Below are positions 682 to 57,175 of a stretch of 64,000 nucleotides of DNA, piece by piece (positions within the stretch are counted from its first letter, which is position 1; every line of letters starts with the position of its first letter). A program made the position numbers and the translations under genes. A model generated the notes under the pieces. It worked only from the letters and a program-made list of their open reading frames with translations, did not search any database and was not told the DNA's origin. Where the stretch lies: positions 32,001-96,000 of IMG/VR virus record IMGVR_UViG_3300024348_000001; one strand, written 5' to 3'. This stretch comes from a virus.

Positions 682-886
682 GTGTTGACTCGCTGTAAGT
701 GCTTATAAGTTTCGTCAGGTAATCCTGAGCTTTTTTCAGATCGTCTACACCGTTCTTATCCCTGTAACGCGCAATGTACTTAATGACATTGCCTTGCAGA
801 AAACCTTGAAACTGATCCTTTGTCATCCACGCTTCCATGGCATCCCACGGCTGAATTGATTTGTTGTAATGCTCAGGTGTCGCCAT
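674..886 (-). CDS. DUF3310-like phage protein
   Basis: PEHY..IQPWD..FLQGNVIKYIARY..KNGVDDLKKA; start reset to ATG 886 behind a GGAGGA RBS. Confidence 0.8.
   Translation of the reverse strand: MATPEHYNKSIQPWDAMEAWMTKDQFQGFLQGNVIKYIARYRDKNGVDDLKKAQDYLTKLISTYSESTHG
696..705 (-). promoter_or_regulatory. TAAGYACTTA motif (TAAGCACTTA variant)
   Basis: 14 nt upstream of the resolvase ATG. Confidence 0.5.
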
Positions 887-1100
887 GGTTATCCTCCGGA
901 TCAGCATCAAGGGAATCCCACAACAACAGGTCGTGGCGATATGGCTTGTATAGGTGATGCCTGTCCCTTTCCCGATGCAGATCAATTGCGCGTCTCAAGC
1001 GTTTGACTTCTGCCATCAGCCGCCGCGCAGATACTACTGTGTCTGTCGGCGTGCTGACGGTCAACATAGCTTCAATGATTCTCAATTCATTTTCAGTCAT
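873..1100 (-). CDS. Hypothetical protein
   Basis: Tightly packed ORF in the minus-strand run. Confidence 0.6.
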   Translation of the reverse strand: MTENELRIIEAMLTVSTPTDTVVSARRLMAEVKRLRRAIDLHRERDRHHLYKPYRHDLLLWDSLDADPEDNHGDT

Positions 1101-1329
1101 GAGGACACAGCAGGTCGCGCGCCCACTCCTGTACCATCATTTCGCCTTTTACCGTCACCGAACAGTTATCGACAATCGCTCCGCGCAATTCTTGAATGGT
1201 GTCAATTAACTTGGCAATGGCACAGGCAGAGTGCCGCAAGTGACATTCTTGCCAATGTGTTGCACCGTCGTTAGATTGCTTGTCCACGAAATTTAATTTC
1301 ATGAACACCAGATCTGCATCACTTAACAT
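1093..1329 (-). CDS. Hypothetical protein
   Basis: Tightly packed ORF abutting its neighbours. Confidence 0.6.
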   Translation of the reverse strand: MLSDADLVFMKLNFVDKQSNDGATHWQECHLRHSACAIAKLIDTIQELRGAIVDNCSVTVKGEMMVQEWARDLLCPHD

Positions 1330-1330
1330 T

Positions 1331-1564
1331 TCAATCCCTCACATACAAGCGTTTGCCGCGCACTTCGACAAAACAACTACCCACATTGCTGATCAATGTG
1401 CAGTACACCCGATACTTACGCTTGTCATTTGCAAACACCAACATCTTGTCAGTAGCTATTTTCCTGCCGTATCCCGAGGGAGACTGTCCGGGCCGTAGCC
1501 CTCCGGGTGAAACTCTTACTGGTTTTTCAATGAGCGTATAGTTCTCAGCATAAGTAATCATCAA
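1331..1564 (-). CDS. Conserved small phage protein
   Basis: PSGYGRKIAT...RVYC..SNVG pattern recalled from a widespread phage family of unknown function. Confidence 0.65.
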   Translation of the reverse strand: MMITYAENYTLIEKPVRVSPGGLRPGQSPSGYGRKIATDKMLVFANDKRKYRVYCTLISNVGSCFVEVRGKRLYVRD

Positions 1565-2388
1565 TTATTCCTTTGACCTCTGTAACGTGTTAGGGCGTCA
1601 GATCTAATAACCGCAGGCGAACCTGCATTAGGAGTTTCTGTCACAGTTTCCGGTACGAGCAATTGCCGAAATTTTTCCATCAAAATATGCACACAAAATG
1701 CGTCTACACTTGCATTGTGCATTTGTGATTTGTTGACGTGCTGATCAAAACCATATTTAACAAAACAATGTTCGCCTAAGTTTGATTTAAGCCCTTTTAT
1801 TCTAAGCGCATTTAATCGCATAAAGTAAGAACGTAATGTGTCAGCTGGCTTAGGAATTGTTACCGGTGTCGGCCCCAATCCATTAGCTTTCTCGATTCCG
1901 TTGGTGTCGATGATGCAGTTATCGTTAAACGTAACTTTGGGAAACTTGAACCTTTGAATGTTGTTAAGAAACATAGGTTCGTCAAAGGCGTAAATGTTGT
2001 GTCCGATGACAGGCACACCTTTGGATAGAAGCGTATTAATCATTTGCGCGTAAAACGTGAATACCTCTTCAGGTGGTTTACCTTCACGTTTCATGCGCTG
2101 GAAATCGAGGTGAAATTGCACTCCTCTTGCGGCCATGGCATTAGATACATTCTGTAACTTGCCTTCTATGGCGTCAGCGAGATCAGCTTGATGTTTAGTC
2201 CAGTCCACAATTGTTGTGAGCCTGTCCACCACTTCGCCGTTACGAACCAGACAGTGACCGAACTCCACAATCAAATCGTTCTGCAAATCTAGCCCTGTGG
2301 TTTCAACGTCGATGACGAAGTAATCACGTGGCCAGCCGCCTCCGTACAGTTTACGAAACTCAGCTGGCCAGTGATTAGCGATCATCAT
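1561..2388 (-). CDS. DEDDh 3'-5' exonuclease (Pol III epsilon-like)
   Basis: IDVETTG, GHNIYAFD and HNASVD motifs. Confidence 0.85.
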   Translation of the reverse strand: MMIANHWPAEFRKLYGGGWPRDYFVIDVETTGLDLQNDLIVEFGHCLVRNGEVVDRLTTIVDWTKHQADLADAIEGKLQNVSNAMAARGVQFHLDFQRMKREGKPPEEVFTFYAQMINTLLSKGVPVIGHNIYAFDEPMFLNNIQRFKFPKVTFNDNCIIDTNGIEKANGLGPTPVTIPKPADTLRSYFMRLNALRIKGLKSNLGEHCFVKYGFDQHVNKSQMHNASVDAFCVHILMEKFRQLLVPETVTETPNAGSPAVIRSDALTRYRGQRNN

Positions 2389-8210: not shown

Positions 8211-8992
8211 ATCTTAACCTCAGTTTGTTCACCGTTGGCGTAATGCTCAACAGTGTAGACAAAAGATTTGTAAGGACTAGAAATACCGTCGTACCACAGC
8301 GGCCGCATACTCAAACCACGGCGAGGTGCCCGAGATTCCCGGTGATGCTCGTCGGCGTTAATTGCTACGTGCGTATTGTAATGGAACAACCGGTAACTCT
8401 GTTGATAACACAGTTCACCCAGCACTGCATCTCCGCCATTGTGGTGCATATCTGGAAAAGGATAATCGTGTTTTTTTAGTAAATTTAAACGTGTCGCCCA
8501 CCAACCGCCTGTTGCAAATTTTATCGCATATCCCTGTGGCCATTCTTTATTTGTGTACCACGATTGATTTTTAATTACGCATCGTTGGTTGCCGTTCCAC
8601 ATACTTGTTAACCGATACACAGAACCAACCAAATCTGCGTTAATAAGATAAGTGCTTATGTCTTGCCAGAACGTACGCGGCGCTGATTCACGTATAAAAC
8701 TGTCATCGTCAAACCACATCACGTTACGTTGTTGCGGGTCTGCGTATCGCAACATCTGTCGCATCAACGGATATTTGCCAACGTTTTCATGATTGTCGGC
8801 CGCAAAAAGAAGCACGGGAATATTAAATCCCCGTGCTTCTTCCGTTAAATATTCTTGCACATCTTGCGTTACTGCGTTCATCCCTATGCGTAATTCCGAT
8901 ACGCCGGGATATTGCGCACATCGTTTAATTGATGTCAAACAACGCGCAATCAAATCACGATGTTCGCCGTAACACAAGACGCATACAAGCAT
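8195..8992 (-). CDS. GT-A fold (GT2-like) glycosyltransferase
   Basis: VLCYG, KYPLMR, WFDDD and HNGGD motifs; paralog of the C-terminal domain of 55229..57154; start reset to ATG 8992. Confidence 0.7.
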   Translation of the reverse strand: MLVCVLCYGEHRDLIARCLTSIKRCAQYPGVSELRIGMNAVTQDVQEYLTEEARGFNIPVLLFAADNHENVGKYPLMRQMLRYADPQQRNVMWFDDDSFIRESAPRTFWQDISTYLINADLVGSVYRLTSMWNGNQRCVIKNQSWYTNKEWPQGYAIKFATGGWWATRLNLLKKHDYPFPDMHHNGGDAVLGELCYQQSYRLFHYNTHVAINADEHHRESRAPRRGLSMRPLWYDGISSPYKSFVYTVEHYANGEQTEVKICTSV

Positions 8993-39166: not shown

Positions 39167-39179
39167 AAAATTACTCGTG

Positions 39180-39989: not shown

Positions 39990-40007
39990 GTGTTTGCCTG
40001 TGGAAGC

Positions 40008-40069
40008 GTTGCCGGTGGAATTCTTTTAAGCGCACTACCCGCATTTACGTGCGGAACTCCACCGGCAAC
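40008..40069. other. Intergenic stem-loop
   Basis: 12-bp stem GTTGCCGGTGGA/TCCACCGGCAAC enclosing a CCGCA/TGCGG hairpin. Confidence 0.6.
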
Positions 40070-40074
40070 AAAGT

Positions 40075-40290: not shown

Positions 40291-40439
40291 GGCATGTGTT
40301 CCTTAAGGCTGGTACTACTGTAGATGCTTAACAATGTTTGCACTGTACCGAGGACAAGGGCAAAGATAGACTCAAAGATCAATTTTAACAAACTGTGCAA
40401 ATTGTCAAGAAACGCGTCTTCGGCACTTTTGCGCGGCAT
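40104..40439 (-). CDS. Hypothetical protein
   Basis: AGGAG RBS; 3' half overlaps 40075..40290. Confidence 0.45.
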   Translation of the reverse strand: MPRKSAEDAFLDNLHSLLKLIFESIFALVLGTVQTLLSIYSSTSLKEHMPWLNRAPPSRSSAVPESIPTKVSVPDHASTLPTYLLTSFQSINARSVPSLKQKVNRNQIAER

Positions 40440-40453
40440 AAGGTACTCCTATC

Positions 40454-42325: not shown

Positions 42326-44002
42326 TTCAACGTCGTCTTCAACGTCACCCGGGTATTGATAAATTTTAGGTTCTTGGAAAAGTCGTGATATGCGGCGAAG
42401 CGACATGTCCCCCGAATTAATCTTGGGTAAGCCAAGTCCGGCATCAATACATGTTGTAATAATTTTTTGCTGAAATTGGTTTTCGTCGGCTAGTTCTGTT
42501 TTAGAGAAAGTGACTGGCAACGCTTCGCCTTTAAACCACAACACACTTTCCGCCACGTGATCAATTCCACGCTGACAGATTGATTTAAGTCTGACAGAAA
42601 AATTAGTCATTTGCAGAAAATCTGTAGGCGCAAGTCTTATAAACCAACCGTCTTTGTTTTCAACAACAAGCCATGCTTTATTTTTGTCAAACAATCGCAC
42701 GCACTTTACGCCATCAATAACAGTGTGCTCTTGTGCCCAGTCTTTGTACTCGTTTGCAATTTCATCAACATCTATATTGGCTAGTAATAAAGCGTTGAAG
42801 AATTCTTTGACTTTGTTTGAGGGTGCAGCCGTTAACCATTTTCGCAACGCATCACGCCAAGGCAAAGCACGTCGAATAATGTAACGCATCAGATCTTCGG
42901 GTTTTTTGGTTTTAATCATTTCAGCAAACGCAGCATCAGTCATGTCCAACAACGCTAGCATGCCACCACTGGAGTAAGCGGCTTGTATGACAGACGGTGT
43001 TGGCGCGCAGCCGACAATGACAATATTTTTTTGTTTAACCGCTGACCACGACACCGTTTGCGTATTTTGATGCGGTTCAAAAAACCACGATACGATAGGC
43101 AAAGGCGTGGTAGACATTAGCGCGTGTCGAGATTGAATACGCAGCGCAATCAACGGATCTTCTAGCGCTATCGCATAATCTCCGCATGTAGTTTGTCCAA
43201 GGATGCTAGCGGACAATCCCCACAAGCCTGCATCGTTTGGTCTGGCTTTGCTATTGAACGTGTTGTCACTGGTACGGCATCGCGTGTAAAGCCTTTGCAA
43301 TTTACCGTGCCTATTTCCAACGCACAGCATGCCTTGAATAAGTCCGGGTGCTAGTTCGTATGGCAGCACCAAAACGTCTCCCCATCCACCCGGAAAACGC
43401 ACAGGCAACGTAATGATGCGATCGTATAAATGCTTTTTGCGAGATGTACCTACGTAATGTTTGTAAGGGCTACCTAATGCCTTTTCTAATTCCTTGTTAT
43501 GGTTTGCAGCAATGTATCGTTCTAATTTAGGAACGAACGATTCCCATTTACGTTGCGACAAATTAAATGTGTTTAGTATCGCGTTAACAGCCATGGGTGG
43601 TTTGCGAAAGTAAGATTCACAAGCTGCCCACGCGTCCGTCGCTTTGTGTCGAGCTGCAATAAATTGTTCTTGGTAGCGCCGAATTGATTCTATCGGTAGA
43701 CTTATCATAGAGGGGACGGCGCGTTTACCAAGTTCGACGAATGTGGCGTCAATAGTCATATTCCAACATGCGGCAAGTAATTCAACAAAGTCGCCATTAT
43801 GTTTACAAGCTTTACAATGCTGCCAACCCACGTTATTTGTGGTATCCTGATAGGCAACCATGCTTTTGACTGCATGACAGAGCGGACAATCAACTGTGAC
43901 CGGCAAAGCGTCAGCTTTGTCAAGATTTAGGAAACCGGCAACAACGTTCCAGTTGAGTTCGATATTAGGAGGGAGCACGCTATGCCTCGTAATGTAGACC
44001 AC
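42284..44002 (-). CDS. Degenerate primase-like protein (Zn finger plus eroded TOPRIM)
   Basis: CPLC...CKAC..GDFVEL; LWGL..IALEDPLIAL; no TOPRIM DxD; start uncertain. Confidence 0.55.
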   Translation of the reverse strand: MVYITRHSVLPPNIELNWNVVAGFLNLDKADALPVTVDCPLCHAVKSMVAYQDTTNNVGWQHCKACKHNGDFVELLAACWNMTIDATFVELGKRAVPSMISLPIESIRRYQEQFIAARHKATDAWAACESYFRKPPMAVNAILNTFNLSQRKWESFVPKLERYIAANHNKELEKALGSPYKHYVGTSRKKHLYDRIITLPVRFPGGWGDVLVLPYELAPGLIQGMLCVGNRHGKLQRLYTRCRTSDNTFNSKARPNDAGLWGLSASILGQTTCGDYAIALEDPLIALRIQSRHALMSTTPLPIVSWFFEPHQNTQTVSWSAVKQKNIVIVGCAPTPSVIQAAYSSGGMLALLDMTDAAFAEMIKTKKPEDLMRYIIRRALPWRDALRKWLTAAPSNKVKEFFNALLLANIDVDEIANEYKDWAQEHTVIDGVKCVRLFDKNKAWLVVENKDGWFIRLAPTDFLQMTNFSVRLKSICQRGIDHVAESVLWFKGEALPVTFSKTELADENQFQQKIITTCIDAGLGLPKINSGDMSLRRISRLFQEPKIYQYPGDVEDDVESDLLPIDDATGFG

Positions 44003-45148
44003 ATCGCTGACAACAACGGCGTTGAATTATACCGTCTGTCGTTGACGCATACTTTGCCAGAATTTGTCAAGAAGGCAAGTCCTGAAAGTATTTATGACGT
44101 CAAAGGCGTTGCGTCTAGCAATTATGCCGATGTGATTAGTCATCAGTTTCCGTGTCACACACCGCAATGCACGTGGTTGAGCACAGCTTTTTTCTTTGAT
44201 AAGAAAGCTGAGTTTTCTGAAAAAGATCAGAAACGCATAGAGTCTCGACTTGAAAAGTTTGCAGCACATTGGGGTATCCGTTCGGAATACAGTGCTGTTA
44301 AGTCTCGTAGTAATCAATTAGAAAAGACAGCTACTGACGTATTGCCTGATTCCAGTTATGCGTGGGTATGGGTTGATGATTCTGGATCAAAAGATCGCAG
44401 ATTGCCGTTGCGCAATGCTTTAGAAGTTAAGACAGCAGCAGATTGGTTACATCAATACCGTGATAATTTCACGTACGCTGATCGTAATCGCATGGCTGTT
44501 AAGATTCTTGAGAAGGTAGCACAGTTTGGCGCTGCCGTTGGTGACAAACTTGAGTTTCTGGAAAAGCAAGCTGGCCACGGCGTATGCAATCCAAAAGAAG
44601 TGCATGCATTGTTGCAGGACCGTATTAAGTTGGCGAACAACGACGAGCACCGCAACATTTTGCAAGCGCTGGCTGACAGCGTGCTTAATACGCCTAAGAT
44701 GGTTCTGACCAGTAATCAATTGGTGAAGTTGGCCACAGTCATCGACACGACGGACCGTGCGCTTAATTTGACTAAGGGTTACGGTTCTATTCTTCAGCGC
44801 CCAGAAGATGTAATTTTTAGCGCTACGTTTACTAAGACAGCTTCTGAATTGCATGAGCATGTATCGACAACGTCTGGCCGCATGTACAACAAACAAGACT
44901 TTGGCAAGGTTGCATTGGATGACCTTAAGTCTTTGTTTGGTGAAGATTTTGCTGACCGCGTGCGAAGTGGACTGGACGTGGACGCGGAAAAGCTGGCGGA
45001 AGAGATCTCAACTCTTCCGCGTCCTGACGCCGAAATGTTTGACTCCCTAATGTCAGAAGTAGGAGTCAAACCCGCAGTTGTTAAGACAGCAGGTGTTCAC
45101 ATGAACAAAGCTGCTGCGGCTTATTATGCTAATTTACTGACGCACTAA
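43982..45148 (+). CDS. Hypothetical protein, possibly head or scaffold associated
   Basis: 388 aa open frame co-oriented with terminase; repeated K-T-A motifs; function is a guess. Confidence 0.6.
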   Translation: MPRNVDHIADNNGVELYRLSLTHTLPEFVKKASPESIYDVKGVASSNYADVISHQFPCHTPQCTWLSTAFFFDKKAEFSEKDQKRIESRLEKFAAHWGIRSEYSAVKSRSNQLEKTATDVLPDSSYAWVWVDDSGSKDRRLPLRNALEVKTAADWLHQYRDNFTYADRNRMAVKILEKVAQFGAAVGDKLEFLEKQAGHGVCNPKEVHALLQDRIKLANNDEHRNILQALADSVLNTPKMVLTSNQLVKLATVIDTTDRALNLTKGYGSILQRPEDVIFSATFTKTASELHEHVSTTSGRMYNKQDFGKVALDDLKSLFGEDFADRVRSGLDVDAEKLAEEISTLPRPDAEMFDSLMSEVGVKPAVVKTAGVHMNKAAAAYYANLLTH

Positions 45149-45845: not shown

Positions 45846-46077
45846 GTTCAGTTCTCCGCCATGCAATCGAACTAGGCGTCTCTCTGATCATCCATTCGTA
45901 CCCAGAGCCAACTTCCAGCATCGTGATGTGCGCGATGCTTTCCAGCTCGGTTCGATACTCACTAGGATCAGCGTGCTTTACCATATCTTTTGCTTTTTCA
46001 AGCGCTTCGTAACGGTTGTCCGCAAGCACGTCTAGCGTGTGCGTTTGAATTGACGTGATCTTAACTTGGTATTTCAT
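45832..46077 (-). CDS. Small phage protein (DpnD/PcfM-like pattern)
   Basis: MKYQVKI...V.ADN..EALEKA. Confidence 0.6.
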   Translation of the reverse strand: MKYQVKITSIQTHTLDVLADNRYEALEKAKDMVKHADPSEYRTELESIAHITMLEVGSGYEWMIRETPSSIAWRRTEHENV

Positions 46078-46259
46078 CCTAACTGCTCCTTTGCGGCTTC
46101 GGCCATCTGTGTAAGTTGATCGAGAGCGGCTTCAAACTTATCGTCATTGCTACCTGCCAATTGCACCGCTTTGTCCAGTGCCAGTGGGTATTGCAGGTTC
46201 AGTTCGGTCAGCACCTTCACACAAAGTACCAATGCCGCTGCTTCTGGTCGTGAATACAT
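46074..46259 (-). CDS. Small hypothetical protein
   Basis: GGGAG RBS plus upstream motif. Confidence 0.65.
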   Translation of the reverse strand: MYSRPEAAALVLCVKVLTELNLQYPLALDKAVQLAGSNDDKFEAALDQLTQMAEAAKEQLG

Positions 46260-46271: not shown

Positions 46272-46283
46272 ATAAGTACTTAT
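46272..46283 (-). promoter_or_regulatory. ATAAGTACTTAT 12-bp palindrome
   Basis: Core lies 13 nt upstream of ATG 46259. Confidence 0.55.
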
Positions 46284-46504
46284 TTATTGTAATTTGCCTT
46301 GATGTAATCCATCAGTAACGTCTCAAGCCAATGCACTTCTTCCAATGCTTCTATGACCGACGACGTCCAATCCACGCTTTGGACTGCGTTTCTGTCGTTG
46401 GCCATTTTCTTTAGGTCTTTTTCGGTAAATGCCGTTTCGGCAATTTGCTTTAAATCAATCTCTACAAATTGCTCGGCCATTAGCGTCCTCCGTCGGCGAT
46501 ACAA
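46280..46504 (-). CDS. Small acidic hypothetical protein
   Basis: Packed ORF; true start probably the internal Met (MAEQ). Confidence 0.6.
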   Translation of the reverse strand: MYRRRRTLMAEQFVEIDLKQIAETAFTEKDLKKMANDRNAVQSVDWTSSVIEALEEVHWLETLLMDYIKANYNK

Positions 46505-46683
46505 ATTATGATTGTCGAATGAACGCTAAAGTCGGCGCACGCTAACTTATCGCCTACTTTTGCGTTTTTTACCCACGCTTGGACAGTTACTTTGTCGCCG
46601 CCAAAGTGTTTTAAGACATGAGACGTATTTACCGTTGCAACGGCGTCTCGTCCAGACATGTCTTTCAACAAAAACATCTTCAC
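46480..46683 (-). CDS. Small hypothetical protein
   Basis: AAGGAG RBS plus upstream motif. Confidence 0.65.
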   Translation of the reverse strand: MKMFLLKDMSGRDAVATVNTSHVLKHFGGDKVTVQAWVKNAKVGDKLACADFSVHSTIIICIADGGR

Positions 46684-46695: not shown

Positions 46696-46707
46696 ATAAG
46701 TACTTAT
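46696..46707 (-). promoter_or_regulatory. ATAAGTACTTAT 12-bp palindrome
   Basis: Intergenic; core lies 13 nt upstream of GTG 46683. Confidence 0.55.
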
Positions 46708-46711
46708 GCGT

Positions 46712-46933
46712 TCAGTTCTTAGCTCGCCATCTATCGAGTAATCGCTGCGCGCGTTCTGTCAACGCTGCGTGTTTAACCGCAGGCAATCTGCTGTTTTCCC
46801 ACGCTCCTAGTTCTTCTTCTGACGCTTCTTTGTATCGATCACTGTCGTGGATAGTTACGTACCCATCTACGGCATCTACGTTAGCAGGAGCGAATGATCC
46901 AAAATTGCTAATGTGGTAAGTCCTTGTTTTCAT
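46712..46933 (-). CDS. Small hypothetical protein
   Basis: 73 aa ORF. Confidence 0.55.
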   Translation of the reverse strand: MKTRTYHISNFGSFAPANVDAVDGYVTIHDSDRYKEASEEELGAWENSRLPAVKHAALTERAQRLLDRWRAKN

Positions 46934-46946
46934 ATGCCTGCCTACG

Positions 46947-46975
46947 AAAAGGCCCGGGGTAGTGTGCCCCGGGCC
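46947..46975 (-). terminator. Rho-independent terminator
   Basis: GGCCCGGGG/CCCCGGGCC stem followed by TTTT on the minus strand. Confidence 0.75.
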
Positions 46976-46980
46976 GTGTA

Positions 46981-47150
46981 ACTCTCACACCAGAGTTTAT
47001 TTAAACGCAAATAAGAAACGGTTGTTGTCAGAGCATCAAGACCGGTTCCTGTCTCGATTGTGTTGGTATGTCTGTCTAGCCGTTAGGATTGCCAGCGTTA
47101 AACAACAGACATCGTAGTGACGTTATGACTCGTCCGCTCTGACAGCGGGT
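46981..47150. ncRNA. Candidate structured RNA
   Basis: ORF-free gap with several stems (see findings); family not recognised. Confidence 0.3.
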
Positions 47151-47191
47151 AGAATAAAACAAGACCCCGCCCAACCAGTACGCAAAGTGTA

Positions 47192-47332
47192 TCAGAATTC
47201 GTTACGTTCGTCTATTAGGCGATCAATCGATTCGTCGTATAAGGCTTCGTCTTCTTGTTCCAATTCGTCCATTTCTTCTTCCGAATATTCTAGATAATCA
47301 TCGGGTGGATCAATCGGCTGCTCAGGTCCCAT
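47192..47332 (-). CDS. Very acidic 46-aa protein (not in the ORF track)
   Basis: Hand translation MGPEQPIDPPDDYLEYSEEEMDELEQEDEALYDESIDRLIDERNEF; overlaps the upstream stop. Confidence 0.6.
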   Translation of the reverse strand: MGPEQPIDPPDDYLEYSEEEMDELEQEDEALYDESIDRLIDERNEF

Positions 47333-47576
47333 GGCATTCCTCCCATCGAGCAATTGTGGTTAAGTTAATAGGCCGGCGTTTGACGACACCGGCCTTTGGT
47401 GGTATTGCGCAGTATTGGTGCTTAGATACCTTGAGTTGCAGTTCTGACAATAGCCGTTGCGCGTCGTTCAAATACTCGTCAATCAACACGGGGCCAAAGT
47501 AATCGTCATCTCCGTGAAACAAATCGATTACTTTGTCTACGCACCTCCGGATCTCTTGCAGTTCTTCGGAAGTCAT
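47322..47576 (-). CDS. Hypothetical protein
   Basis: 84 aa ORF with RBS. Confidence 0.6.
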   Translation of the reverse strand: MTSEELQEIRRCVDKVIDLFHGDDDYFGPVLIDEYLNDAQRLLSELQLKVSKHQYCAIPPKAGVVKRRPINLTTIARWEECHGT

Positions 47577-47586
47577 ATCACCCCCG

Positions 47587-48885
47587 TCAATCTTTTTCCC
47601 ACAACTTGATAGCGTCCAGATTCACAGCACGCCTTACTTTCTTCACGTCATCGGCCTGTTCAAGCAACGTTTCCACGCTGCTGGTCAGTGCCGTAGCCAA
47701 AGACTTACGGAAACTCTTGCTTTGCTTGATCTCGTGAGCGATCTCTTCGCTACGCCCACCGACACGACTAAACTGTGCCCGGATTTGATCCAAGGCAGCA
47801 TCCATCTGAACGCCTTGCGCACCCAACATGGATCGGATGTGACCGAAGCCATTCAGCTTTTCCATGATGTGCTGGATGGTCGAAGTGGTGATACGCTTGC
47901 GCTCTTCCGTTTCGACAGGACAGAACCGTGTCTTGAACGTTTCTGTGGGCATCGTCAAGACTTCGGTAACTTTCTTGTCGCCATCCACGGCGTACTTCAA
48001 CTCGACCGTGATGTTGTCTCCGCTAACAGTCTGCCGCACGACTTCGGCGTTAGTGAAGCGGACAATTTCAGTATCCATCTCGTGTGGATGGACTCGTGTT
48101 CGTTGCACCAATTGATTGGCCAACGTTTCAAAAGCCGTCTGCAACTCCGACGTGATATAGTCGGTGGCAGTCTGGATTGTACGGTCAATTTCCGAAGCGA
48201 CACGGGAGCACTCCCGTTGGTAGATTGCGGCTGGTAATCGTACGGATGGCTTGTACGCCGTGTAGACAGGATCGCTTACAGTGATGACCTGCCGCAAGTT
48301 ATCTGGGTAGTCACGGAGGTTGAACTGATCTCCAAGGCGTTGACGGTCAAGATCTAGAATGGAATCCCAGACTGTACCGTCAACATCAGTATACGGAACA
48401 TTAAGATGCTCCGTCACCCGATCTGCCGCTGAGTACAGTTGGTCTCGTCGCAAGAAGAAACCGCGCTCGAACTCTTCCATGTCTTCGACGCGGATCAGCC
48501 TGACGCCGCCTTCGATGGTGGTGTCGTTAGCTGCATTAGCCTTTACGATTGTGAAAGCATCTCGCCATGCGTGGATATTACGCCGACAGGTGCTCAATTC
48601 ACTCAGCAAAGGATGTCCTGACGTGAGCAACTTTTTGCTGACACCGAAACCTTTGCTTTCCCCGGACACTACCGAGACCATCTGGAATTTAGTCTTGGCA
48701 TCGACCTGTTTCGATTGAGAAAACCAAGAACATGCGTACGTAACTTCCTGACAGTTCAAAGCAATATTAGTAATCGTGGCTGCGTGCTGGTTTGGACTAA
48801 TCGTTGGCTTGGTCTCATCGAAATTGAAACTCATCTGCTCGGATCCTGTTGTGATAGTGCTCATACGTTTCTTTCTCCAGTTCAA
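47587..48885 (-). CDS. DUF3150-like protein usually associated with the AAA cassette
   Basis: SKKLL...HP...GVRLI..RLGDQFN..DYP..YQREC.RV pattern recalled from planctomycete mobile elements. Confidence 0.55.
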   Translation of the reverse strand: MNWRKKRMSTITTGSEQMSFNFDETKPTISPNQHAATITNIALNCQEVTYACSWFSQSKQVDAKTKFQMVSVVSGESKGFGVSKKLLTSGHPLLSELSTCRRNIHAWRDAFTIVKANAANDTTIEGGVRLIRVEDMEEFERGFFLRRDQLYSAADRVTEHLNVPYTDVDGTVWDSILDLDRQRLGDQFNLRDYPDNLRQVITVSDPVYTAYKPSVRLPAAIYQRECSRVASEIDRTIQTATDYITSELQTAFETLANQLVQRTRVHPHEMDTEIVRFTNAEVVRQTVSGDNITVELKYAVDGDKKVTEVLTMPTETFKTRFCPVETEERKRITTSTIQHIMEKLNGFGHIRSMLGAQGVQMDAALDQIRAQFSRVGGRSEEIAHEIKQSKSFRKSLATALTSSVETLLEQADDVKKVRRAVNLDAIKLWEKD

Positions 48886-49148
48886 ACTTCTTCGGTAACA
48901 AACGACACTGCCTGATCAAGAGCTGCGCGCGCTTGATCTGTGGCTTCGTTATCATCTTCTCTGTACGTAGCCCACATGACTTTGAGGGCTTCTAACAAGA
49001 CAGGTGCTGCTGCAATTAATCGGGCATTGTCAAAGGCTTCCAAAGGATGATTGACAATGTGGGCCACTGCTTCCCCTTCGGGATCATTTACCGGACCAAC
49101 GGCTAGTACGAATCCGTCCTTGAAACTCCACGGACCGGGCGTATGCAT
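48882..49148 (-). CDS. HTPGPW...NARLIAAAP family phage protein
   Basis: Diagnostic motif; start reset to ATG 49148 behind GGAGG. Confidence 0.75.
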   Translation of the reverse strand: MHTPGPWSFKDGFVLAVGPVNDPEGEAVAHIVNHPLEAFDNARLIAAAPVLLEALKVMWATYREDDNEATDQARAALDQAVSFVTEEV

Positions 49149-49160
49149 AAGAACCTCCGC

Positions 49161-49194
49161 AAAGTGGGCCGGGCAAAGTTTATCCCGGCCCACT
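49161..49194 (-). terminator. Terminator-like hairpin
   Basis: 11-bp stem AGTGGGCCGGG/CCCGGCCCACT just after the AAA gene stop. Confidence 0.65.
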
Positions 49195-49204
49195 ACGAGT
49201 ACTG

Positions 49205-50974
49205 TTATTCACCACGAAGCCGACGACGCCCTGTAATAGGCGGTGTCGTGGTTTCCGTTGTCGCTGTGGCAGCTACCTTGAACAGCTTGCCAGTTGAAGC
49301 ATCTAAAGCGCATTCCGAAGCCCATTTATCGAGCTTGCCAATTTGCTTTGCCGCAGACACAGCAACAGGACGGATACGCTGCTGAGTCTCGGACAAAGGC
49401 TCGGCCAACCTGCAAGCCAGACGACACGCTGAACGGATCTCGGCAGGAGTCCATCCCTCGTCGTTCACGATGTAGCCTTGCACAGCACGACCTAGAACAT
49501 CATCAAGCGCCGTGATTTGTGCAATGTATCCGTCACGCCCAGCTTTATCTTTAACCAACAACGACATTGCAATCCTTTGAGCAAAAGCCCCAATATCCTT
49601 TCGTTTGGCTTTGTACTCCTCGATGATTCCGTCCACATCTGCTTCAAACTTGCGGGCGTTTGGCACTCCGGCGATCGTCGCAGGGAAGAAGCGCTTGAGG
49701 TAAATGTTCCATACCTCAGCCCGTTGCTTATCGTCAGGAAGTCGAACATAGAAAATAGCATCGACACGTTCGGCACGAGTAAACGCCTCGTGCATGTTAC
49801 TGATGTCATTCTCGGTGAACACCCAGAAGATTGACTCTTTGATGTCATTCATCTGGGTCAAGAACGTACCCAACATGCGGCTGCCGACACCGCCGTCACG
49901 GTCACCACCTGCGGCTGGCATGACCTTGGACACCTCGTCGATGATCACGACGCACGGGGACATAGCTTTGCACACCTGAAAGAACTTACGAGTGTTCTTC
50001 TCGGTCTCGCCCACCAAACCACCCATCAAGTTGCCGGGATTAGCCAGCAACGTAGGAATGCCAAACTCGTTGCCCGTTGTCTGGGCGATCAGAGACTTAC
50101 CAGTACCGGGAGGACCAACCAGCACAATACCCTTAGCTCGGGCATCTTTATCAATTGCGTCCATGGGGTTAGGCGCCAGCAACTTGCGCAGGAAACCCTT
50201 GACGCCTTCATTACCACCGACATCGGCATACTTGAGACGCGTGTCCAGCAACTCGACCAGACCGTCCTGATTGAGAATCTTGGCTTTGTACTGCCAGACA
50301 CTTTCAGGCGGCACTTCCTTGTGCTCTACATAAGCCGCAGCGAATACTCCTTCGGCCTGTAGCCGCGTCATGCCCAACGCAGCCTTGATGGCCTTGGTGA
50401 CCCGTTCTGGATCAACTGTAGTCAACACCCCTACAGTGTTGTCGTAGATCTCCTTCAATTCGGCTTCGTCGGGCAACTGGTGATTAACGGCGTGGAATAA
50501 AGGAGCCACCTCCTCAGGGAGTTTGGTCCCCGGAGGACTAACAACCACAATGGCTTTTTGGAACTCCTTGCCGATTGGGCAGAAGTTCTGAATGGCGGCA
50601 GACAAGCGATGGCGCTCGGCAGTCAGAGACAGGTGACCATTCTTCAATACCAGAATCGAAGGCAAGAGAGGTTGCTCTGCGCCTTCCTCTGTGCTGGTGT
50701 TGAACTTATCGTAAAGTGGCCCGTCCTTGACCATGCCATTGATCAAGTCCACGGGTGATTCTTGTCCACCGCGATTGAGCATCACCGCAGCGTCATCGCC
50801 TTCAGTCTTTTTGCCGTGGAGGCCCTTGTGGGCGTCCCAGATCATAAGATTCCATTGTCGCTTACGGCAGACATTGGTAATCGCAGCGATTGCGTCCTCG
50901 ATCTCGTCCGTATGGACGAAGATTGCGGGCTGACAGGCGTAAATGGCGGTCTTGAATTCGTTGGTCAGGCTCAT
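49205..50974 (-). CDS. AAA+ ATPase (Ycf46-like)
   Basis: GPPGTGKS, IIDEV, GVGSRMLGTFL and RAERVDAIF motifs; start reset to ATG 50974. Confidence 0.85.
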   Translation of the reverse strand: MSLTNEFKTAIYACQPAIFVHTDEIEDAIAAITNVCRKRQWNLMIWDAHKGLHGKKTEGDDAAVMLNRGGQESPVDLINGMVKDGPLYDKFNTSTEEGAEQPLLPSILVLKNGHLSLTAERHRLSAAIQNFCPIGKEFQKAIVVVSPPGTKLPEEVAPLFHAVNHQLPDEAELKEIYDNTVGVLTTVDPERVTKAIKAALGMTRLQAEGVFAAAYVEHKEVPPESVWQYKAKILNQDGLVELLDTRLKYADVGGNEGVKGFLRKLLAPNPMDAIDKDARAKGIVLVGPPGTGKSLIAQTTGNEFGIPTLLANPGNLMGGLVGETEKNTRKFFQVCKAMSPCVVIIDEVSKVMPAAGGDRDGGVGSRMLGTFLTQMNDIKESIFWVFTENDISNMHEAFTRAERVDAIFYVRLPDDKQRAEVWNIYLKRFFPATIAGVPNARKFEADVDGIIEEYKAKRKDIGAFAQRIAMSLLVKDKAGRDGYIAQITALDDVLGRAVQGYIVNDEGWTPAEIRSACRLACRLAEPLSETQQRIRPVAVSAAKQIGKLDKWASECALDASTGKLFKVAATATTETTTPPITGRRRLRGE

Positions 50975-50984
50975 GCTTCTCTCC

Positions 50985-51016
50985 AAAAGAAAGGGTCCCT
51001 GCAAAAACAGGGACCC
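50985..51016 (-). terminator. Rho-independent terminator
   Basis: GGGTCCCTG/CAGGGACCC stem followed by TTTCTTTT on the minus strand. Confidence 0.7.
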
Positions 51017-51047
51017 GTGACGTGTAACTAATTCCTACTAATCGAAC

Positions 51048-51245
51048 TTATATCTGCTGCTGATTCTCTACTCTTTTCTCGAGGAAGCTTGGCTCGACGG
51101 CCTCTGCCGTGTCGTGGCCGTCAAGTGCACCTTGACGCCGCAGATACGGAGCCATGGCCTTGCGGCAAAGATTGCCGCCAAAGCCTTGCGCTTCTTTACT
51201 GATTGAACCGTCGATACCGTACTTTGTTACAATTACCGGTTCCAT
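51048..51245 (-). CDS. DUF2997-like protein
   Basis: IDGSI..EAQGF.G..C pattern. Confidence 0.65.
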   Translation of the reverse strand: MEPVIVTKYGIDGSISKEAQGFGGNLCRKAMAPYLRRQGALDGHDTAEAVEPSFLEKRVENQQQI

Positions 51246-51254
51246 TGTCTCTCC

Positions 51255-51752
51255 TTAGCTGAGTCTTGCTTCCGCAGGTTTGGTATGCGACACATAGCTG
51301 CCGTCCGGTTGGCGAATAAACTCAATTTCATCGCCCAGTTGTTGTGCCGCAATAGCATCGGACGCCATGCGGTAGTGCATCTGCAATAGCGGCGCAATTG
51401 TTTTCTCATCGCGCCCGTCTTTGCTCTGACTAAACACCGGGTGGCCGATTACATCGTGCAAGCCAAACCCGTTTTTCCACTCATCGTACTTAATCAAGTA
51501 CGACCCTGCGTTTTCCGGGTCGGGCACGATGCCGACCTCGTACGGATCAAGCCCGTGTTTTTCTTTGATAAGCCGGGCTTGTTCTGCTGAACAAGACAAT
51601 ACCATGACCGCATCATTGCAATCGTGGTGTGCTCGATACGTTGCACGGTCATGAACGGTCATTCCCATTAATCGCGCGGCCATTCTTACCGCATTCAAAT
51701 CCGTAATGAGTGGCCGCCCTTTGATACTCTTACCAGTTACCATGAACGACAT
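51255..51752 (-). CDS. DUF1257-like protein
   Basis: ITDL.A..A...G...YEVG......Y...YD.W...L.Q.Y; synteny with DUF2997-like and AAA genes. Confidence 0.6.
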   Translation of the reverse strand: MSFMVTGKSIKGRPLITDLNAVRMAARLMGMTVHDRATYRAHHDCNDAVMVLSCSAEQARLIKEKHGLDPYEVGIVPDPENAGSYLIKYDEWKNGFGLHDVIGHPVFSQSKDGRDEKTIAPLLQMHYRMASDAIAAQQLGDEIEFIRQPDGSYVSHTKPAEARLS

Positions 51753-51806
51753 ACAATCCTCCAGCCTTGATTAGGCAATGTTTATTCGTTGTGCCGGGGT
51801 TAAAAT

Positions 51807-52037
51807 TCAGTCAGTTTCGTTAAAGAAATTTGCGACATCATCATCAGTGTCAGGATCAATGTCGGGACGGGTGTTACTAATAATCTCTTGTTCAAACTCT
51901 TCTATAAGCTCTGCAACTGTATCGTGGCGTACTGATAATTTTTCAACTAAGAAACTCATGACCTTACGCGTATCCCAACCCATAGCGACCATTGCGGCGG
52001 ATAAGACTTCGCTTAGCGTATTGTCAGTGATAGTCAC
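51807..52037 (-). CDS. Small acidic hypothetical protein
   Basis: 4-nt overlap with the upstream gene. Confidence 0.55.
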   Translation of the reverse strand: MTITDNTLSEVLSAAMVAMGWDTRKVMSFLVEKLSVRHDTVAELIEEFEQEIISNTRPDIDPDTDDDVANFFNETD

Positions 52038-52759
52038 GAGGTTACTCCCTTATGTAGAAGCTGTTGTAATTTTTTAACAATCTCGTCTGTCGAACCTTGC
52101 TTTAGTTGAAGCGCGGATAATTGTTCCATCAGTTCTTGCAGACAAAGACGCAGTGTTGCTTCTACTGCGTCTTTTTTTCCTGTCTGCACGTCGTTAACAG
52201 CTGCAAACATTTCCGGGTCATCTGTGAAATCGTATGACACGGTTTTGGCGTAATCTTTGACGGCAAGTCGCAATACATCTGGGGCCTGCACAAAACCTTG
52301 TTCGTCCAGTATGAATGCGATGTATCTGCGAATCTCAAGACAAAACAATTCATCGTCTTCGTCGGGTGGACTTAACAACAAAGCTTCTGTAATCGCCCAC
52401 GCACACTCCATGGCATCCGCAGGATCAAATTCATCGGGCTGGAAATCATCAAAGGCTAATACGTTGGCTAACTGCACAAACCTTGAAGCATTCTTAAAAA
52501 ACAAATCTGTCGTTACAACCGTAATTGCCGCAAGCAATCTGTCGTAATTTGCTTTTGGCAATTTAAGCGCAAAGTCGCTTTCAATTTCTAACCGAATCGT
52601 TTCTGGATGCCATGTAAGCAATTCTGGACCGTAATGATCAAGCCCCATGACAAGCAAAGTTGTGGCAAACGTTTCAGGATCTGTCCAAAGTTTTTTCCAC
52701 GTACTAAGTGTTTGTTGTGGGACGGTCAGGGTCGATCCCATGAGTATGCTGTCGTTCAT
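52034..52759 (-). CDS. Conserved large-phage hypothetical protein, possibly virion-associated
   Basis: WHPETIRLEIE..F..DPAD..E.AW.ITEA pattern recalled from large phages. Confidence 0.6.
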   Translation of the reverse strand: MNDSILMGSTLTVPQQTLSTWKKLWTDPETFATTLLVMGLDHYGPELLTWHPETIRLEIESDFALKLPKANYDRLLAAITVVTTDLFFKNASRFVQLANVLAFDDFQPDEFDPADAMECAWAITEALLLSPPDEDDELFCLEIRRYIAFILDEQGFVQAPDVLRLAVKDYAKTVSYDFTDDPEMFAAVNDVQTGKKDAVEATLRLCLQELMEQLSALQLKQGSTDEIVKKLQQLLHKGVTS

Positions 52760-53213
52760 TCTCTTGCTCCATCGCCAGAATGTATTCTTTCTTGCGATTG
52801 AATAGTTCTGTCACATTGCAAACGACAAGCGTCACAGGCGTTCGCGGTAATTCTTCTAATTTATCACCACTGGAAACTTCTAAGAACTTTTCTTCACCTG
52901 TCCAGCCAACGTATTTACCATCACAAACCGTCAAACCAAATGTTGTCATTGCGGCTTTAGTTTCGTCTTTCCAAACATTTAAACATTTTACCAGTTGCTC
53001 TCTGTAAGTGCTTATAATTATTTCCTGATCTGCATCTGAAAACAGACCAAGATGAATAAGCCACTCCAGCAAATAAATTAAAATTTGCGTTTTGTCGTCA
53101 AGCCCTTGTTTTAACTGGTCTTGCGTCAAATGCAAAAAACGGCGGCAAAATTGCTCAAACCTTGGATGGGTTAGAGTTTTTGCCGCCGTTAATACAGTTT
53201 TAGTTGGTGTCAT
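52704..53213 (-). CDS. Hypothetical protein
   Basis: 169 aa coupled ORF. Confidence 0.65.
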   Translation of the reverse strand: MTPTKTVLTAAKTLTHPRFEQFCRRFLHLTQDQLKQGLDDKTQILIYLLEWLIHLGLFSDADQEIIISTYREQLVKCLNVWKDETKAAMTTFGLTVCDGKYVGWTGEEKFLEVSSGDKLEELPRTPVTLVVCNVTELFNRKKEYILAMEQENERQHTHGIDPDRPTTNT

Positions 53214-53578: not shown

Positions 53579-53606
53579 ATGATAAGTTCCCCAAATAAAT
53601 TGTCAA
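53579..53606 (-). promoter_or_regulatory. Sigma70-type promoter
   Basis: TTGACA (53606-53601), 16-nt spacer, TATCAT (53584-53579). Confidence 0.6.
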
Positions 53607-53661
53607 GCACGGTACTGCGTTTGAGCGCAATACCGTGCTTGGAATCAATTTATTTGGGGAA
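53587..53661. repeat. Long nested inverted repeat
   Basis: Perfect 16-bp outer arms (53587-53602/53646-53661) and 11-bp inner arms (53604-53614/53631-53641). Confidence 0.9.
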
Positions 53662-54019: not shown

Positions 54020-54096
54020 AGGTCCTCCTTGCTCATCTCGTTATAAATAAACGGGATGCAAAGAATATGACGCGTTTTTGCCTTGGATTTAGGCTG

Positions 54097-54860: not shown

Positions 54861-54869
54861 GAGCTACTC

Positions 54870-55229
54870 CTAGAAACGCAACACGCGCGAATTGTTTTCG
54901 GCATCTTTATAATACAACACCACCTCACGAATTTCCTGTTTGAGTCTTGCGCAGAAATATTGCTTTAACGGTTGAAGCACATCGGGATCTACGCGGTAAA
55001 CGGCATGTAACTGTTTACCTAAAGCGTTAACAGATTTATCCAATGCTTGTCGAATTGTTGTGCAACCGCTACAAGGATCTTCTTCCTGTCCCATGGCAAT
55101 ACGCAAAGCTCGGGCGTGACTTTCTTTACAAGGCTCCACTAAAGGCTCAAAACCGGGTGGCAGAGTTTTATAAAAATTGTCGTCACCAAACATTTGATAA
55201 AAGTGTGTTGTGTTTAATACAAGTTGCAT
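54870..55229 (-). CDS. Hypothetical protein with CxxC
   Basis: CSGC; TAATG coupling to the GT gene. Confidence 0.65.
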   Translation of the reverse strand: MQLVLNTTHFYQMFGDDNFYKTLPPGFEPLVEPCKESHARALRIAMGQEEDPCSGCTTIRQALDKSVNALGKQLHAVYRVDPDVLQPLKQYFCARLKQEIREVVLYYKDAENNSRVLRF

Positions 55230-57154
55230 TATTTACGCCCCCACGGAAAAGTTTCAGAAAAACCGCGACGTCCGCCTTTATCTTTGGGCGGGCACCAGAC
55301 GTATTTCTTTCCTGCATTGAAGTCTTTGATTTTACCACCAAGCTGATGTACTTGCGCACCTATGGTAATATCTCCGCCGTTGTGATTAAGCCTAACGTCG
55401 GGAATGTTAGCTTGCTTCATAGTTTCAGTTGCCAGTGCCCAAAAATAACCCACGGCAAAATCTACACAAGAACCGTTAGATGCCAGCATTTGTTTATTCG
55501 ACAGCCTCAAGTGTACGTTTCTAAACCAGTCGCTTTGGCGGAACCATAAGTCAGGTCTGTGTCCGCCGATAGCCATGGCGCTTAGATCGTGATACATCTT
55601 GGTACCGTACAACCGACAACCTTCTCGATGATTCAAGTTAATTGTTTCGGCTAGACGCGCTGCCCACATGGAATCAATAATTTTCGTGTCGTCATCAAAC
55701 CAAACAAGATATGGCGTAGTGACAGGACAACTTGGATCGTGGAACATTTCACGCATGACTGGATACTTTTTGGCATTGTCTTCGTGATGGTAGATTTTTG
55801 TAACGACGGGTCCAAGCGACGCCACAAAATCGTACGTAGCTCGAGATACGGCATTTAAACCGACACGTAGATCTATGCGTCTGCGGGGCAACGTTTTGAG
55901 AATGCCTTCAATGCAAGTTTTAGCTAACTCAGTGTGATCGCCGTAGCAGAGAACAAAGATTGTAAACTTGCCACCGATGTAAGGATTGTCCATAACTCCA
56001 AACAGATCAAATTCGGTTTCCTGTGATAGGTCATGTTTTTCAGGAGGAGGGGGCGCAGTCTTAACAGTCACCACGGTTGTCACGGGTTTTAGGATATCCA
56101 ACGTAGTGGCTGTTTGACTGACATTTTTAACAGGAAGAACATTTTCTAGTGAATATTTACGGGATGGCTGCGAAATAGGAGGTAGAGTCCCGTCTTCGTA
56201 ATATTCCATGACTTTCTCCACCACATGATCTACAGTGATACGGTTTAAGCATTCAGGCACCGGTTGTTCGTCGGTACGTACAGGATGCAGACATAACTGT
56301 AATTTTGCTTTGCTGTTTGTTAAATCCATTTGATCAATAGGCACGGTTCGTTTTTTCCAGCACCCCGACGTTTTACAACAATCCATTTGACCTATCGTGT
56401 GCAAAAACTTATGCGGCACTTTAACGGGAGCGCATGTGTCGGGGAATTGACCGTGATTGGAGTAACCTTCCCACCACCACTCTTCGCGTCCTCCCGCCAA
56501 CACAACGCATGGCTTGTCGAACACGGCGGCGATATGCATAAACGATGTGATGCCGCAGATGACACCTTCAGCGTGGTAGATCAATCTAAACAAGTCGGCA
56601 ATGTCATCCGTAGATCCAACCATGTATTTCACGTTGTTAAGCACAGGATGGACGTTGCGCGTAAAGGCTGCTCCTGCTTGTACGCAATTAATGCCATACT
56701 TGAGTAACGTATCTACAACGCCTTGAAATCTGGAAGGCAACCACCATTTGGCTGTCATATCTACTTTGCCACCACCAACGACAACCCAGTATCTACCCGC
56801 AACTAATTTTTCTTCTTTGTTGGGACCGAGAAAAATTTCGCCTTTAGGATGCAGCACAGGAACGTCAATACCTGTGCGTTGTTTCCATTTCTTATGGAAG
56901 AATGATACGAAATGCTGTTTGACGCCTGATACCGATTCACGAATGCCGTCGTCGTATTCCATTTGAATGACAGGAGCATTTAGCTTGGGATCTAAAGGGT
57001 AGACGTAAGGAAAGTACCGCCAGTAAGACGAATAACTTCCTGCCATAGAAATGCGGTATTTACCGGGATACGTCAGATTCAAATCTCTAACAACCGCTGA
57101 CAAGGCCACGGTGTCACCCAAGGCCCAACGATTATGAATGACGTAAGGTTGCAT
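55229..57154 (-). CDS. GT9 (heptosyltransferase-like) - GT2 fusion glycosyltransferase
   Basis: N-terminal ALGD, KWW..RF, ITSFMHIAA.F.KP.V.L.GG, Cys motif CC...GCW..C..EC..IT; C-terminal WFDDD and HNGGD. Confidence 0.8.
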   Translation of the reverse strand: MQPYVIHNRWALGDTVALSAVVRDLNLTYPGKYRISMAGSYSSYWRYFPYVYPLDPKLNAPVIQMEYDDGIRESVSGVKQHFVSFFHKKWKQRTGIDVPVLHPKGEIFLGPNKEEKLVAGRYWVVVGGGKVDMTAKWWLPSRFQGVVDTLLKYGINCVQAGAAFTRNVHPVLNNVKYMVGSTDDIADLFRLIYHAEGVICGITSFMHIAAVFDKPCVVLAGGREEWWWEGYSNHGQFPDTCAPVKVPHKFLHTIGQMDCCKTSGCWKKRTVPIDQMDLTNSKAKLQLCLHPVRTDEQPVPECLNRITVDHVVEKVMEYYEDGTLPPISQPSRKYSLENVLPVKNVSQTATTLDILKPVTTVVTVKTAPPPPEKHDLSQETEFDLFGVMDNPYIGGKFTIFVLCYGDHTELAKTCIEGILKTLPRRRIDLRVGLNAVSRATYDFVASLGPVVTKIYHHEDNAKKYPVMREMFHDPSCPVTTPYLVWFDDDTKIIDSMWAARLAETINLNHREGCRLYGTKMYHDLSAMAIGGHRPDLWFRQSDWFRNVHLRLSNKQMLASNGSCVDFAVGYFWALATETMKQANIPDVRLNHNGGDITIGAQVHQLGGKIKDFNAGKKYVWCPPKDKGGRRGFSETFPWGRK

Positions 57155-57165
57155 GGGGAACTCTG

Positions 57166-57175
57166 TAAGTACTTA
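57166..57175 (-). promoter_or_regulatory. TAAGTACTTA palindromic motif
   Basis: Intergenic; 11 nt upstream of ATG 57154. Confidence 0.55.

Follow-up and report, generated by a model that had tools for sequence, protein, structure and literature searches.

A palindromic TAAGYACTTA box abutting ribosome-binding sites as a candidate promoter of a phage that encodes its own RNA polymerase

INTRODUCTION

The late promoters of phage T4 consist of an 8-bp box, TATAAATA, which has no −35 element and is recognized by gp55 together with gp33 and the gp45 clamp. Phages of the T7 group use asymmetric 23-bp promoters of classes II and III with a single-subunit polymerase, and the early promoters of phage N4 are extruded hairpins read by a T7-like single-subunit virion RNA polymerase. 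A further short element, the epsilon enhancer of the T7 gene 10 leader, places UUAACUUUA directly 5′ of the ribosome-binding site (RBS). The jumbo phages phiKZ and AR9 have early promoters for a virion RNA polymerase and late promoters for a non-virion RNA polymerase (PMC7598289, PMC5312081), and promoter motifs of jumbo phages are phage-specific, ∼10 nt long, AT-rich and centred near −10 (PMC7598289). The T4 motif is cited in genome papers on T4-like phages (e.g. PMC1524935). Here we analysed a palindromic box, TAAGYACTTA, in a 64 000-nucleotide stretch of the genome of an uncultured ∼200-kb phage (bases 32001–96000 of the IMG/VR virus record IMGVR_UViG_3300024348_000001, 186,054 bp, estimated 86% complete), hereafter the window.

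The nearest cultured relatives of this phage, at ∼30% protein identity, are Salmonella phage Arash and the Vibrio phages D69, D148 and D181, and a megablast search of 20 kb of the window against a phage collection returned no near-identical cultured phage. In its length, AT-richness and number of copies, the motif analysed here fits the form of the phiKZ and AR9 promoters. Boxes that serve as promoters for polymerases encoded by phages are already known; what is new here is the sequence of the box, its palindromic form and its position abutting the RBS. A published account of promoters in the Arash/D69 group was not found, the words promoter, motif and terminator are absent from the Arash paper (PMC10585845), and a literature search on the motif strings gave unrelated matches only.

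RESULTS

Copy number and position of the box

TAAGYACTTA occurs nine times in the window, where 0.12 copies were expected (100 dinucleotide shuffles; largest shuffle count, 2), and 17 exact sites were found in the entire record against an expectation of ∼0.35. The window has ∼46% GC, is 96.5% coding and holds nearly all genes on the minus strand. In the entire record, TAAGTACTTA with its overlapping words tops the list of over-represented 10-mers. In the window, TAAGTACTTA lies at 30762, 30995, 46273, 46697 and 57166, and TAAGCACTTA lies at 696, 8649 and 53005 on the minus strand and at 41281 on the plus strand, always on the strand of the local gene. A model that had earlier inspected the letters of the window (the sequence-only reading) had reported these nine copies and had roughly estimated 0.1 expected per 64 kb; rechecked in the sequence, its coordinates and sequences were all correct. 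The boxes of the window and the genes directly downstream of them are as follows.

130–681, minus strand: Holliday-junction resolvase gene, 183 aa (phrog_1770, E = 6e-22), directly 3′ of a box
696–705, minus strand: box TAAGCACTTA, 14 nt 5′ of the resolvase ATG and within the 3′ end of the upstream open reading frame (ORF)
8649–8658, minus strand: box TAAGCACTTA, inside a co-oriented 289-aa ORF, with no called start near
30183–30746, minus strand: 187-aa gene with no Pfam or PHROG match, 3′ of a box
30762–30771, minus strand: box TAAGTACTTA, 15 nt 5′ of the ATG of the 187-aa gene, with the RBS AAAGGAAA next
30995–31004, minus strand: box TAAGTACTTA, within a 114-aa ORF (30743–31087) or in its 5′ part, with an alternative ATG ∼52 nt downstream
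41281–41290, plus strand: box TAAGCACTTA, inside the co-oriented large terminase gene (40454–42325, plus strand) and identical in two strain-level relatives, G6 and G7
46074–46259, minus strand: 61-aa gene, 3′ of a box
46273–46282, minus strand: box TAAGTACTTA, whose TAA doubles as the upstream gene's stop codon, followed by TAGGGAGA and, 13 nt downstream, the ATG of the 61-aa gene
46480–46683, minus strand: 67-aa gene, 3′ of a box
46697–46706, minus strand: box TAAGTACTTA, followed by TAAGGAGA and, 13 nt downstream, the GTG of the 67-aa gene
53005–53014, minus strand: box TAAGCACTTA, followed by CAGAGAG, in an ambiguous gene model where either the closest start of an ORF of ≥35 aa follows 55 nt downstream or the box lies within a 169-aa ORF
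55229–57154, minus strand: 641-aa glycosyltransferase gene (Glyco_transf_9, 22.7 bits against a cut-off of 22), 3′ of a box
57166–57175, minus strand: box TAAGTACTTA, 11 nt 5′ of the ATG of the 641-aa gene

Gene starts were called by an RBS score that was blind to the box, which gave a null probability of 0.017 per site; this null was used instead of that from any in-frame ATG or GTG (0.17), which is inflated. On the coding strand, a called start follows nine of the 17 exact boxes at a distance of 11–18 nt (binomial P = 2e-12), and enrichment near starts was thereby found genome-wide. The five window copies that had been placed 11–15 nt upstream of the starts at 681, 30746, 46259, 46683 and 57154 are indeed at distances of 14, 15, 13, 13 and 11 nt, respectively. 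The RBS begins 1–2 nt past the end of the box. A tenth exact box is found 47 nt 5′ of a 397-aa gene, and five one-mismatch copies, including one TAAACACTTA and three TAAGCATTTA, are placed like the exact ones. Upstream of the boxes, the DNA mostly encodes the end of the preceding gene: at least five boxes supply the stop codon of that gene with their TAA, and elsewhere the box is read through as its coding end.

Six or seven of the 17 exact boxes have no adjacent start (8649, 30995, 41281 and perhaps 53005 in the window, and three outside it). These start-distant copies are still ∼20 times more frequent than the whole-genome chance level, and the function of the box is thus not tied to a start codon. 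Only ∼6% of the genes carry a box.

Anatomy and direction of the box

An alignment of 15 start-proximal copies, all read on the coding strand, had information only at the ten box positions, in a purine at −1 and in a purine-rich stretch from +11 to +15, which is the RBS and whose first position is A or G in all 15 copies; the consensus is R-TAAGYACTTA, with one variable base, followed by this purine-rich stretch. No conserved element was present in the 20 nt 5′ of the box in the same alignment, and k-mer enrichment revealed no other conserved promoter-like element within 45 nt upstream of the boxes. The alignment likewise had no conserved −35 element, and a scan for the sigma70 consensus around the boxes yielded no more sites than in shuffled sequences.

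With a TA centre the box is a perfect 10-bp palindrome that contains GTAC and AGTACT, its core being a palindrome of the restriction type. Where the centre is asymmetric, it reads CA and not TG on the coding strand in eight of nine exact copies; the four such copies that lie within genes, three of them in genes of the plus strand, all read CA in this sense. Together with the same bias in the distant relative G2 (4/4), the joint probability is P = 0.002; the element is therefore read directionally.

Four boxes folded as RNA with their flanks had minimum free energies of −2.2 to −4.0 kcal/mol and z-scores of at least −0.3, no better than shuffled sequences. Given that no stable fold exists at the boxes, an RNA hairpin, a processing hairpin or a terminator was rejected as an explanation for this genome. 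Rfam contained no family matching within the window.

Gene classes carrying the box

The genes directly 3′ of boxes encode the portal protein (a homologue of Arash gp204), the Holliday-junction resolvase, the 641-aa glycosyltransferase and several small proteins of unassigned function. Also boxed are the 397-aa gene, located 5′ of the tail-sheath gene, and a 112-aa gene adjoining the major capsid gene. From the box at genome position 156100, a run of co-oriented genes with no box between extends to the major capsid gene at its end. Five boxed genes encode a common N-terminal leader (MITASELGKLAA, MFTAAELGMLTA or MTAHDLGVLAA).

Genome 154544–156088, 163764–164870, 164889–165899, 172905–174083 and 176265–176582, outside the window: the five boxed genes sharing the N-terminal leader

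Three of these five have an identical box–RBS–leader cassette. The three TAAGCATTTA copies head paralogous genes and, because this cassette is identical, arose by duplication and are not independent. The sequence-only reading was therefore right that the box links unrelated genes, with the qualification that three one-mismatch copies outside the window represent one duplicated cassette.

No start-proximal box was found in the 26-kb replication and recombination module (genome 33.3–59.4 kb), which contains DNA polymerase, helicase, SbcC-like and UvsX-like genes. The distribution of box-bearing genes suggests a late rather than an early class. Only nine proteins of this phage have a detectable Arash homologue, so that temporal classes cannot be transferred by homology.

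Transcription machinery of the phage

The phage encodes a bacterial-type multisubunit RNA polymerase. A 1498-aa protein (L013:918–5414, minus strand) fuses beta to the N-terminal catalytic part of beta′, with matches to Rpb2_6 (beta catalytic region, E = 4e-54) and Rpb1_2 (beta′ double-psi region, E = 2e-21), and a 1369-aa protein (L012:9574–13683, minus strand) is the C-terminal beta′ subunit (Rpb1_5, E = 1e-18). Further matches of the latter are to AAA/kinase-like, acylphosphatase and DUF5661 domains. None of the phage proteins matched Sigma70_r2. A diverged sigma-like protein of 247 aa is encoded at genome 112088–112831 (L010:88–831, minus strand); it is a homologue of Arash gp10 (E = 6e-9), scores 24.6 bits against Sigma70_r3 (cut-off 25.3) and has weak whole-family sigma matches too. 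In purified Arash virions, the beta, beta′ and gp10 proteins were detected (PMC10585845).

Strain-level relatives

G6 and G7 are ∼93% identical to this phage and keep every shared box, with no change at 80 box positions as opposed to 27 changes at 896 flank positions. The box at 46273 is unchanged while its flanks are altered, and that at 46697 is unchanged while its upstream flank is altered. The box is also present in strain-specific inserts. The homology block shared with G6 and G7 starts 3 nt 5′ of the box at 57166, which therefore marks a mosaic junction; only one of ∼6 homology breaks falls at a box. In these strains (contigs IMGVR_UViG_3300042890_003048 and 3300042469_000894, compared at 57166–57178), the 5.4 kb that this genome has 5′ of the box on the coding strand is replaced by 3.2 kb of different DNA.

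Distant and cultured relatives

Distant relatives were found through their terminase and polymerase. TAAGYACTTA is absent from five related contigs, and its AAGTACTT core is absent or at background in G8, G9, G10, G11 and G12 and is common to this genome and G2 only; the sequence of the box is thus not conserved across the group. Three distant relatives have high-copy boxes of their own (13–18 copies; AAAAAGYACTTTTT, AAAAAACGTTTTTT and TAGAAACTGG) at the same place, between the upstream stop codon and the RBS or ATG on the coding strand. In G2 (202 kb, 62.5% GC), 14 copies of GATCTAAAAAG[T/C]ACTTTTTAGATC were found, whose asymmetric centre is the one that reads CA. In G10 (219 kb, 50% GC), 18 copies of ATTCTAAAAAACGTTTTTTAGAAT were found, with an ATG or GTG 16–28 nt downstream in 12 of them and the upstream stop codon just 5′ of the box or inside it. 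The palindrome spans 22–24 bp in G2 and G10 as against 10 bp here. In G9 (208 kb, 62.5% GC), 13 copies of TAGAAACTGG(M)WTCTA were found, of which several come after terminator hairpins and one is ∼120 nt upstream of a tRNA pair. The motif search gave nothing convincing in G8 and G1. Across related phages, then, the box is kept in G6 and G7, whereas its exact sequence is missing from most distant relatives, where other boxes are found.

Two further observations concern these genomes. The beta and beta′ genes of G2 match those of Arash in six and three separate pieces over 11 and 5 kb, respectively (34052–44868 and 46867–52158), which suggests that the G2 polymerase genes carry insertions such as introns, inteins or homing endonuclease genes. 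In G10, ARAGORN predicted a tRNA with the anticodon CTA on the complement of 89121–89193, labelled tRNA-Pyl, which may be an amber suppressor tRNA.

Among the cultured relatives, Arash (OQ632216.1) and D69 (OZ195729.1) have boxes of the forms TAAAATA and TATAAGTAA. The motif TGnTATAAGTAA stands before early-type genes and a tRNA gene; Arash has 16 copies, and in D69 the motif is accompanied by a −35-like TTCAAT. The motif (C/G/T)TAAAATA precedes structural genes in both phages, including the portal and endolysin genes of Arash; it differs from the T4 late box at two positions. The two motif classes are apparently unreported. The left palindrome arm of the G2 and G10 boxes (CTAAAAA) resembles this late-type box, and TAAAATA-type boxes are not start-proximal in the genome analysed here. 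Alignment of TAAGYACTTA with Arash TGGTATAAGTAAAGTGTA as a shared −10 element was tried and rejected, since the D69 motif has a −35 element and leader hairpins before early-type genes; Arash TGGTATAAGTAAAGTGTA corresponds instead to the second promoter-like class described below.

Other signals in the genome

A second promoter-like class, CTAAATCCA-N17-TATAAC(ATG), also given as CCTAAATCCA-N17-TATAAC(ATG), has ∼8 coding-strand copies, mostly near the record ends, and behind several of them come a leader hairpin, an RBS and a short ORF. The genome also has seven strong hairpin terminators, each with T8–9 and then AGCTATY at its end.

Window ∼54055–54092, minus strand, and genome 2316, 2764, 27577, 180199, 180697, 183594 and 184655: copies of CCTAAATCCA-N17-TATAAC
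Genome 1913, 2336, 27226, 179611, 180218, 183198 and 184345, minus strand, outside the window: hairpin terminators

The CTAAATCCA-N17-TATAAC class looks like an early promoter class, and TAAGYACTTA is on this account a separate signal class. The terminator tail TTTTTTTAGCTATC was also found in the 62% GC relative G2 (191020–191050), directly before a G2 box. In the window, a hairpin with a 16-bp stem at 53579–53641 (minus strand) overlaps a near-consensus sigma70-type promoter (TTGACA-16-TATCAT).

DISCUSSION

Comparison with described systems

The box and the T4 late promoters have in common a single short AT-rich element of the −10 type without a −35 element, short leaders (predicted here), many copies directly before late or, here, probably late genes (virion, packaging and resolvase) and a frequent overlap with the end of the preceding gene within co-oriented arrays; the cultured relatives Arash and D69 add the near-T4 motif (C/G/T)TAAAATA before structural genes. 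The two differ in that the box here is palindromic, with the consensus R-TAAGYACTTA rather than the T4 sequence, and in the origin of the polymerase core, which this phage encodes itself (beta/beta′) and which T4 takes from the host and reprogrammes. No homologue of gp55, gp33 or the clamp turned up, although no search was aimed at gp55, gp33 or gp45; the one sigma-like protein seen was the 247-aa homologue of Arash gp10.

With phiKZ and AR9, this phage shares a multisubunit RNA polymerase of its own and a phage-specific conserved AT-rich motif of ∼10 nt before transcription units that varies among phages. The polymerase here, however, is bacterial-like with strong Pfam matches, is present as one set with beta fused to the N-terminal part of beta′, and is accompanied by a sigma-like protein, while that of phiKZ is of the split, highly divergent beta/beta′ type. 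The phiKZ TATG and AR9 AACA-N6-T(A/G) sequences are unrelated to the box, and, unlike genes behind the early promoters of these phages, the boxed genes here (portal and leader-bearing genes) look late.

As in the T7 group, a phage-specific sequence is present in ∼15–20 copies between co-oriented genes without intervening terminators, and one copy marks a module-exchange boundary between strains; the 10-bp palindrome is nevertheless unlike the asymmetric 23-bp T7 promoters, and no PF00940-type polymerase was seen here, although none was searched for. N4 is similar in combining inverted-repeat promoters with a virion-carried polymerase, as the Arash subunits are virion-associated, but the palindrome here spans 10 bp only and its extrusion is hypothetical. 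Like the epsilon enhancer, the box is a short AU-rich element immediately 5′ of the RBS; epsilon, in contrast, is an element of a single gene leader, and the box is also found far from start codons.

Promoter interpretation and alternatives

The sequence-only reading had proposed a promoter or a transcriptional or translational operator, of which the promoter half fits the results best and the operator half is weakened. The presence of a phage-encoded RNA polymerase and a sigma-like factor, the one-way reading of the box, the boxes of the relatives, the intragenic copies and the absence from the replication module all favour a promoter. A phage-specific promoter, and probably a late one, is the most economical interpretation of TAAGYACTTA, although in our judgement an evenly balanced proposition; its late role is suggested by the classes of boxed genes and, in the cultured relatives, by the T4-late-like box. 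From sequence we infer the promoter role, the transcription start, the reading factor and the temporal class as follows. The box would be read on the DNA by the fused beta–beta′ RNA polymerase of the phage, possibly with the sigma-like 247-aa protein, and would act as a single −10-type element without a −35 element. Transcription would start at or just past its 3′ end, in a T4-like geometry perhaps at the invariant purine that follows it by two bases, and the resulting mRNAs would have very short leaders opening at the RBS. Within long co-oriented arrays that lack terminators, the box would thereby give a separate class of genes, probably a late one, additional transcripts.

Several points speak against a promoter. 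A perfect twofold symmetry, over 10 bp here and 22–24 bp in G2 and G10, is not expected of one. The RBS abuts the box, and a start 5–7 nt past a −10-type element would leave a leader of ∼5–13 nt or cut into the RBS. The box has neither a TG extension nor a T at the equivalent of −7 and is in this respect unlike a sigma70 −10 element. There is no box directly upstream of the major capsid gene, and G8, the closest relative by polymerase sequence, shows no comparable box. The conservation of the box in G6 and G7, though suggestive, is not significant on its own (∼2.4 changes expected, none seen), and a likeness to Arash TATAAGTA proved to concern a different, early-type promoter class.

The fixed spacing at which the coding-strand box abuts the RBS is also what a signal in the mRNA would show, be it a translation enhancer or ribosome standby site, a site bound by a translational regulator or one where sequence-specific cleavage releases the downstream cistron from a polycistronic transcript. 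The strand-specific centre suits RNA as well as a promoter, the frequent overlap with the upstream stop codon places boxes at cistron junctions of seemingly long polycistronic units, and the order stop codon, box, RBS and start is repeated in relatives. We nevertheless regard such a signal as unlikely: six or seven of the 17 exact boxes have no start nearby and yet exceed chance ∼20-fold, a G9 box is ∼120 nt upstream of a tRNA pair and several G9 boxes come after terminators, and the ∼6% of genes that are boxed do not include the capsid gene. Since the boxes form no stable RNA structure, processing that depends on a hairpin is unlikely in particular. The palindrome itself, at 10 bp here and at 22–24 bp in G2 and G10, is a hallmark of sites bound by dimers, and its position overlaps the expected 5′ untranslated region, so that a phage repressor or activator might bind it as an operator and co-regulate genes whose promoters are poorly conserved and located elsewhere. 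A symmetric binder would, however, not impose the strand-biased centre (8/9 here and 4/4 in G2), no other conserved promoter element was found within 20 nt upstream, or within 45 nt by k-mer enrichment, the DNA upstream is mostly the coding end of the preceding gene and no candidate regulator was identified; we consider an operator slightly less likely still.

A role at the DNA level outside gene expression, as a site-specific nick, a handle for recombination or module exchange, or a target of methylation or restriction, would agree with the mosaic junction 3 nt from the box at 57166, the boxes within strain-specific inserts and the restriction-type palindromic core. It leaves the spacing of 11–18 nt to the start and the abutting RBS unexplained, only one of the ∼6 homology breaks is at a box, and the cores of the relatives differ (ACGT, ACTGG) at the same gene-proximal position, which together make it highly improbable. 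A bolder form of the promoter interpretation takes the palindromic boxes (TAAGYACTTA here, and AAAAAGTACTTTTT and AAAAAACGTTTTTT at 22–24 bp) as a new, twofold-symmetric class of promoter for a virion-carried bacterial-type multisubunit RNA polymerase, a proposal that we regard as speculative and quite unlikely. The boxes would then be recognized as extruded or melted AT-rich dyads, as in N4, or by a dimeric specificity factor replacing sigma, and transcription would start so near the coding sequence that some mRNAs would be nearly leaderless.

Significance

If the box is a promoter, its positions provide a transcription map for the little-studied ∼200-kb phages related to Arash, D69, D148 and D181, a group with a sigma-like factor and a bacterial-like polymerase in which beta and beta′ are fused, and the box and its polymerase would form a short orthogonal promoter–polymerase pair. 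Should it work at the mRNA level instead, the boxed genes would share an unusual signal for translation or processing. The results raise the question of how a bacterial-type polymerase uses a symmetric 10-bp element that abuts the RBS, and, because each lineage has a box of its own at this position, the question can be tested in the cultured relatives.

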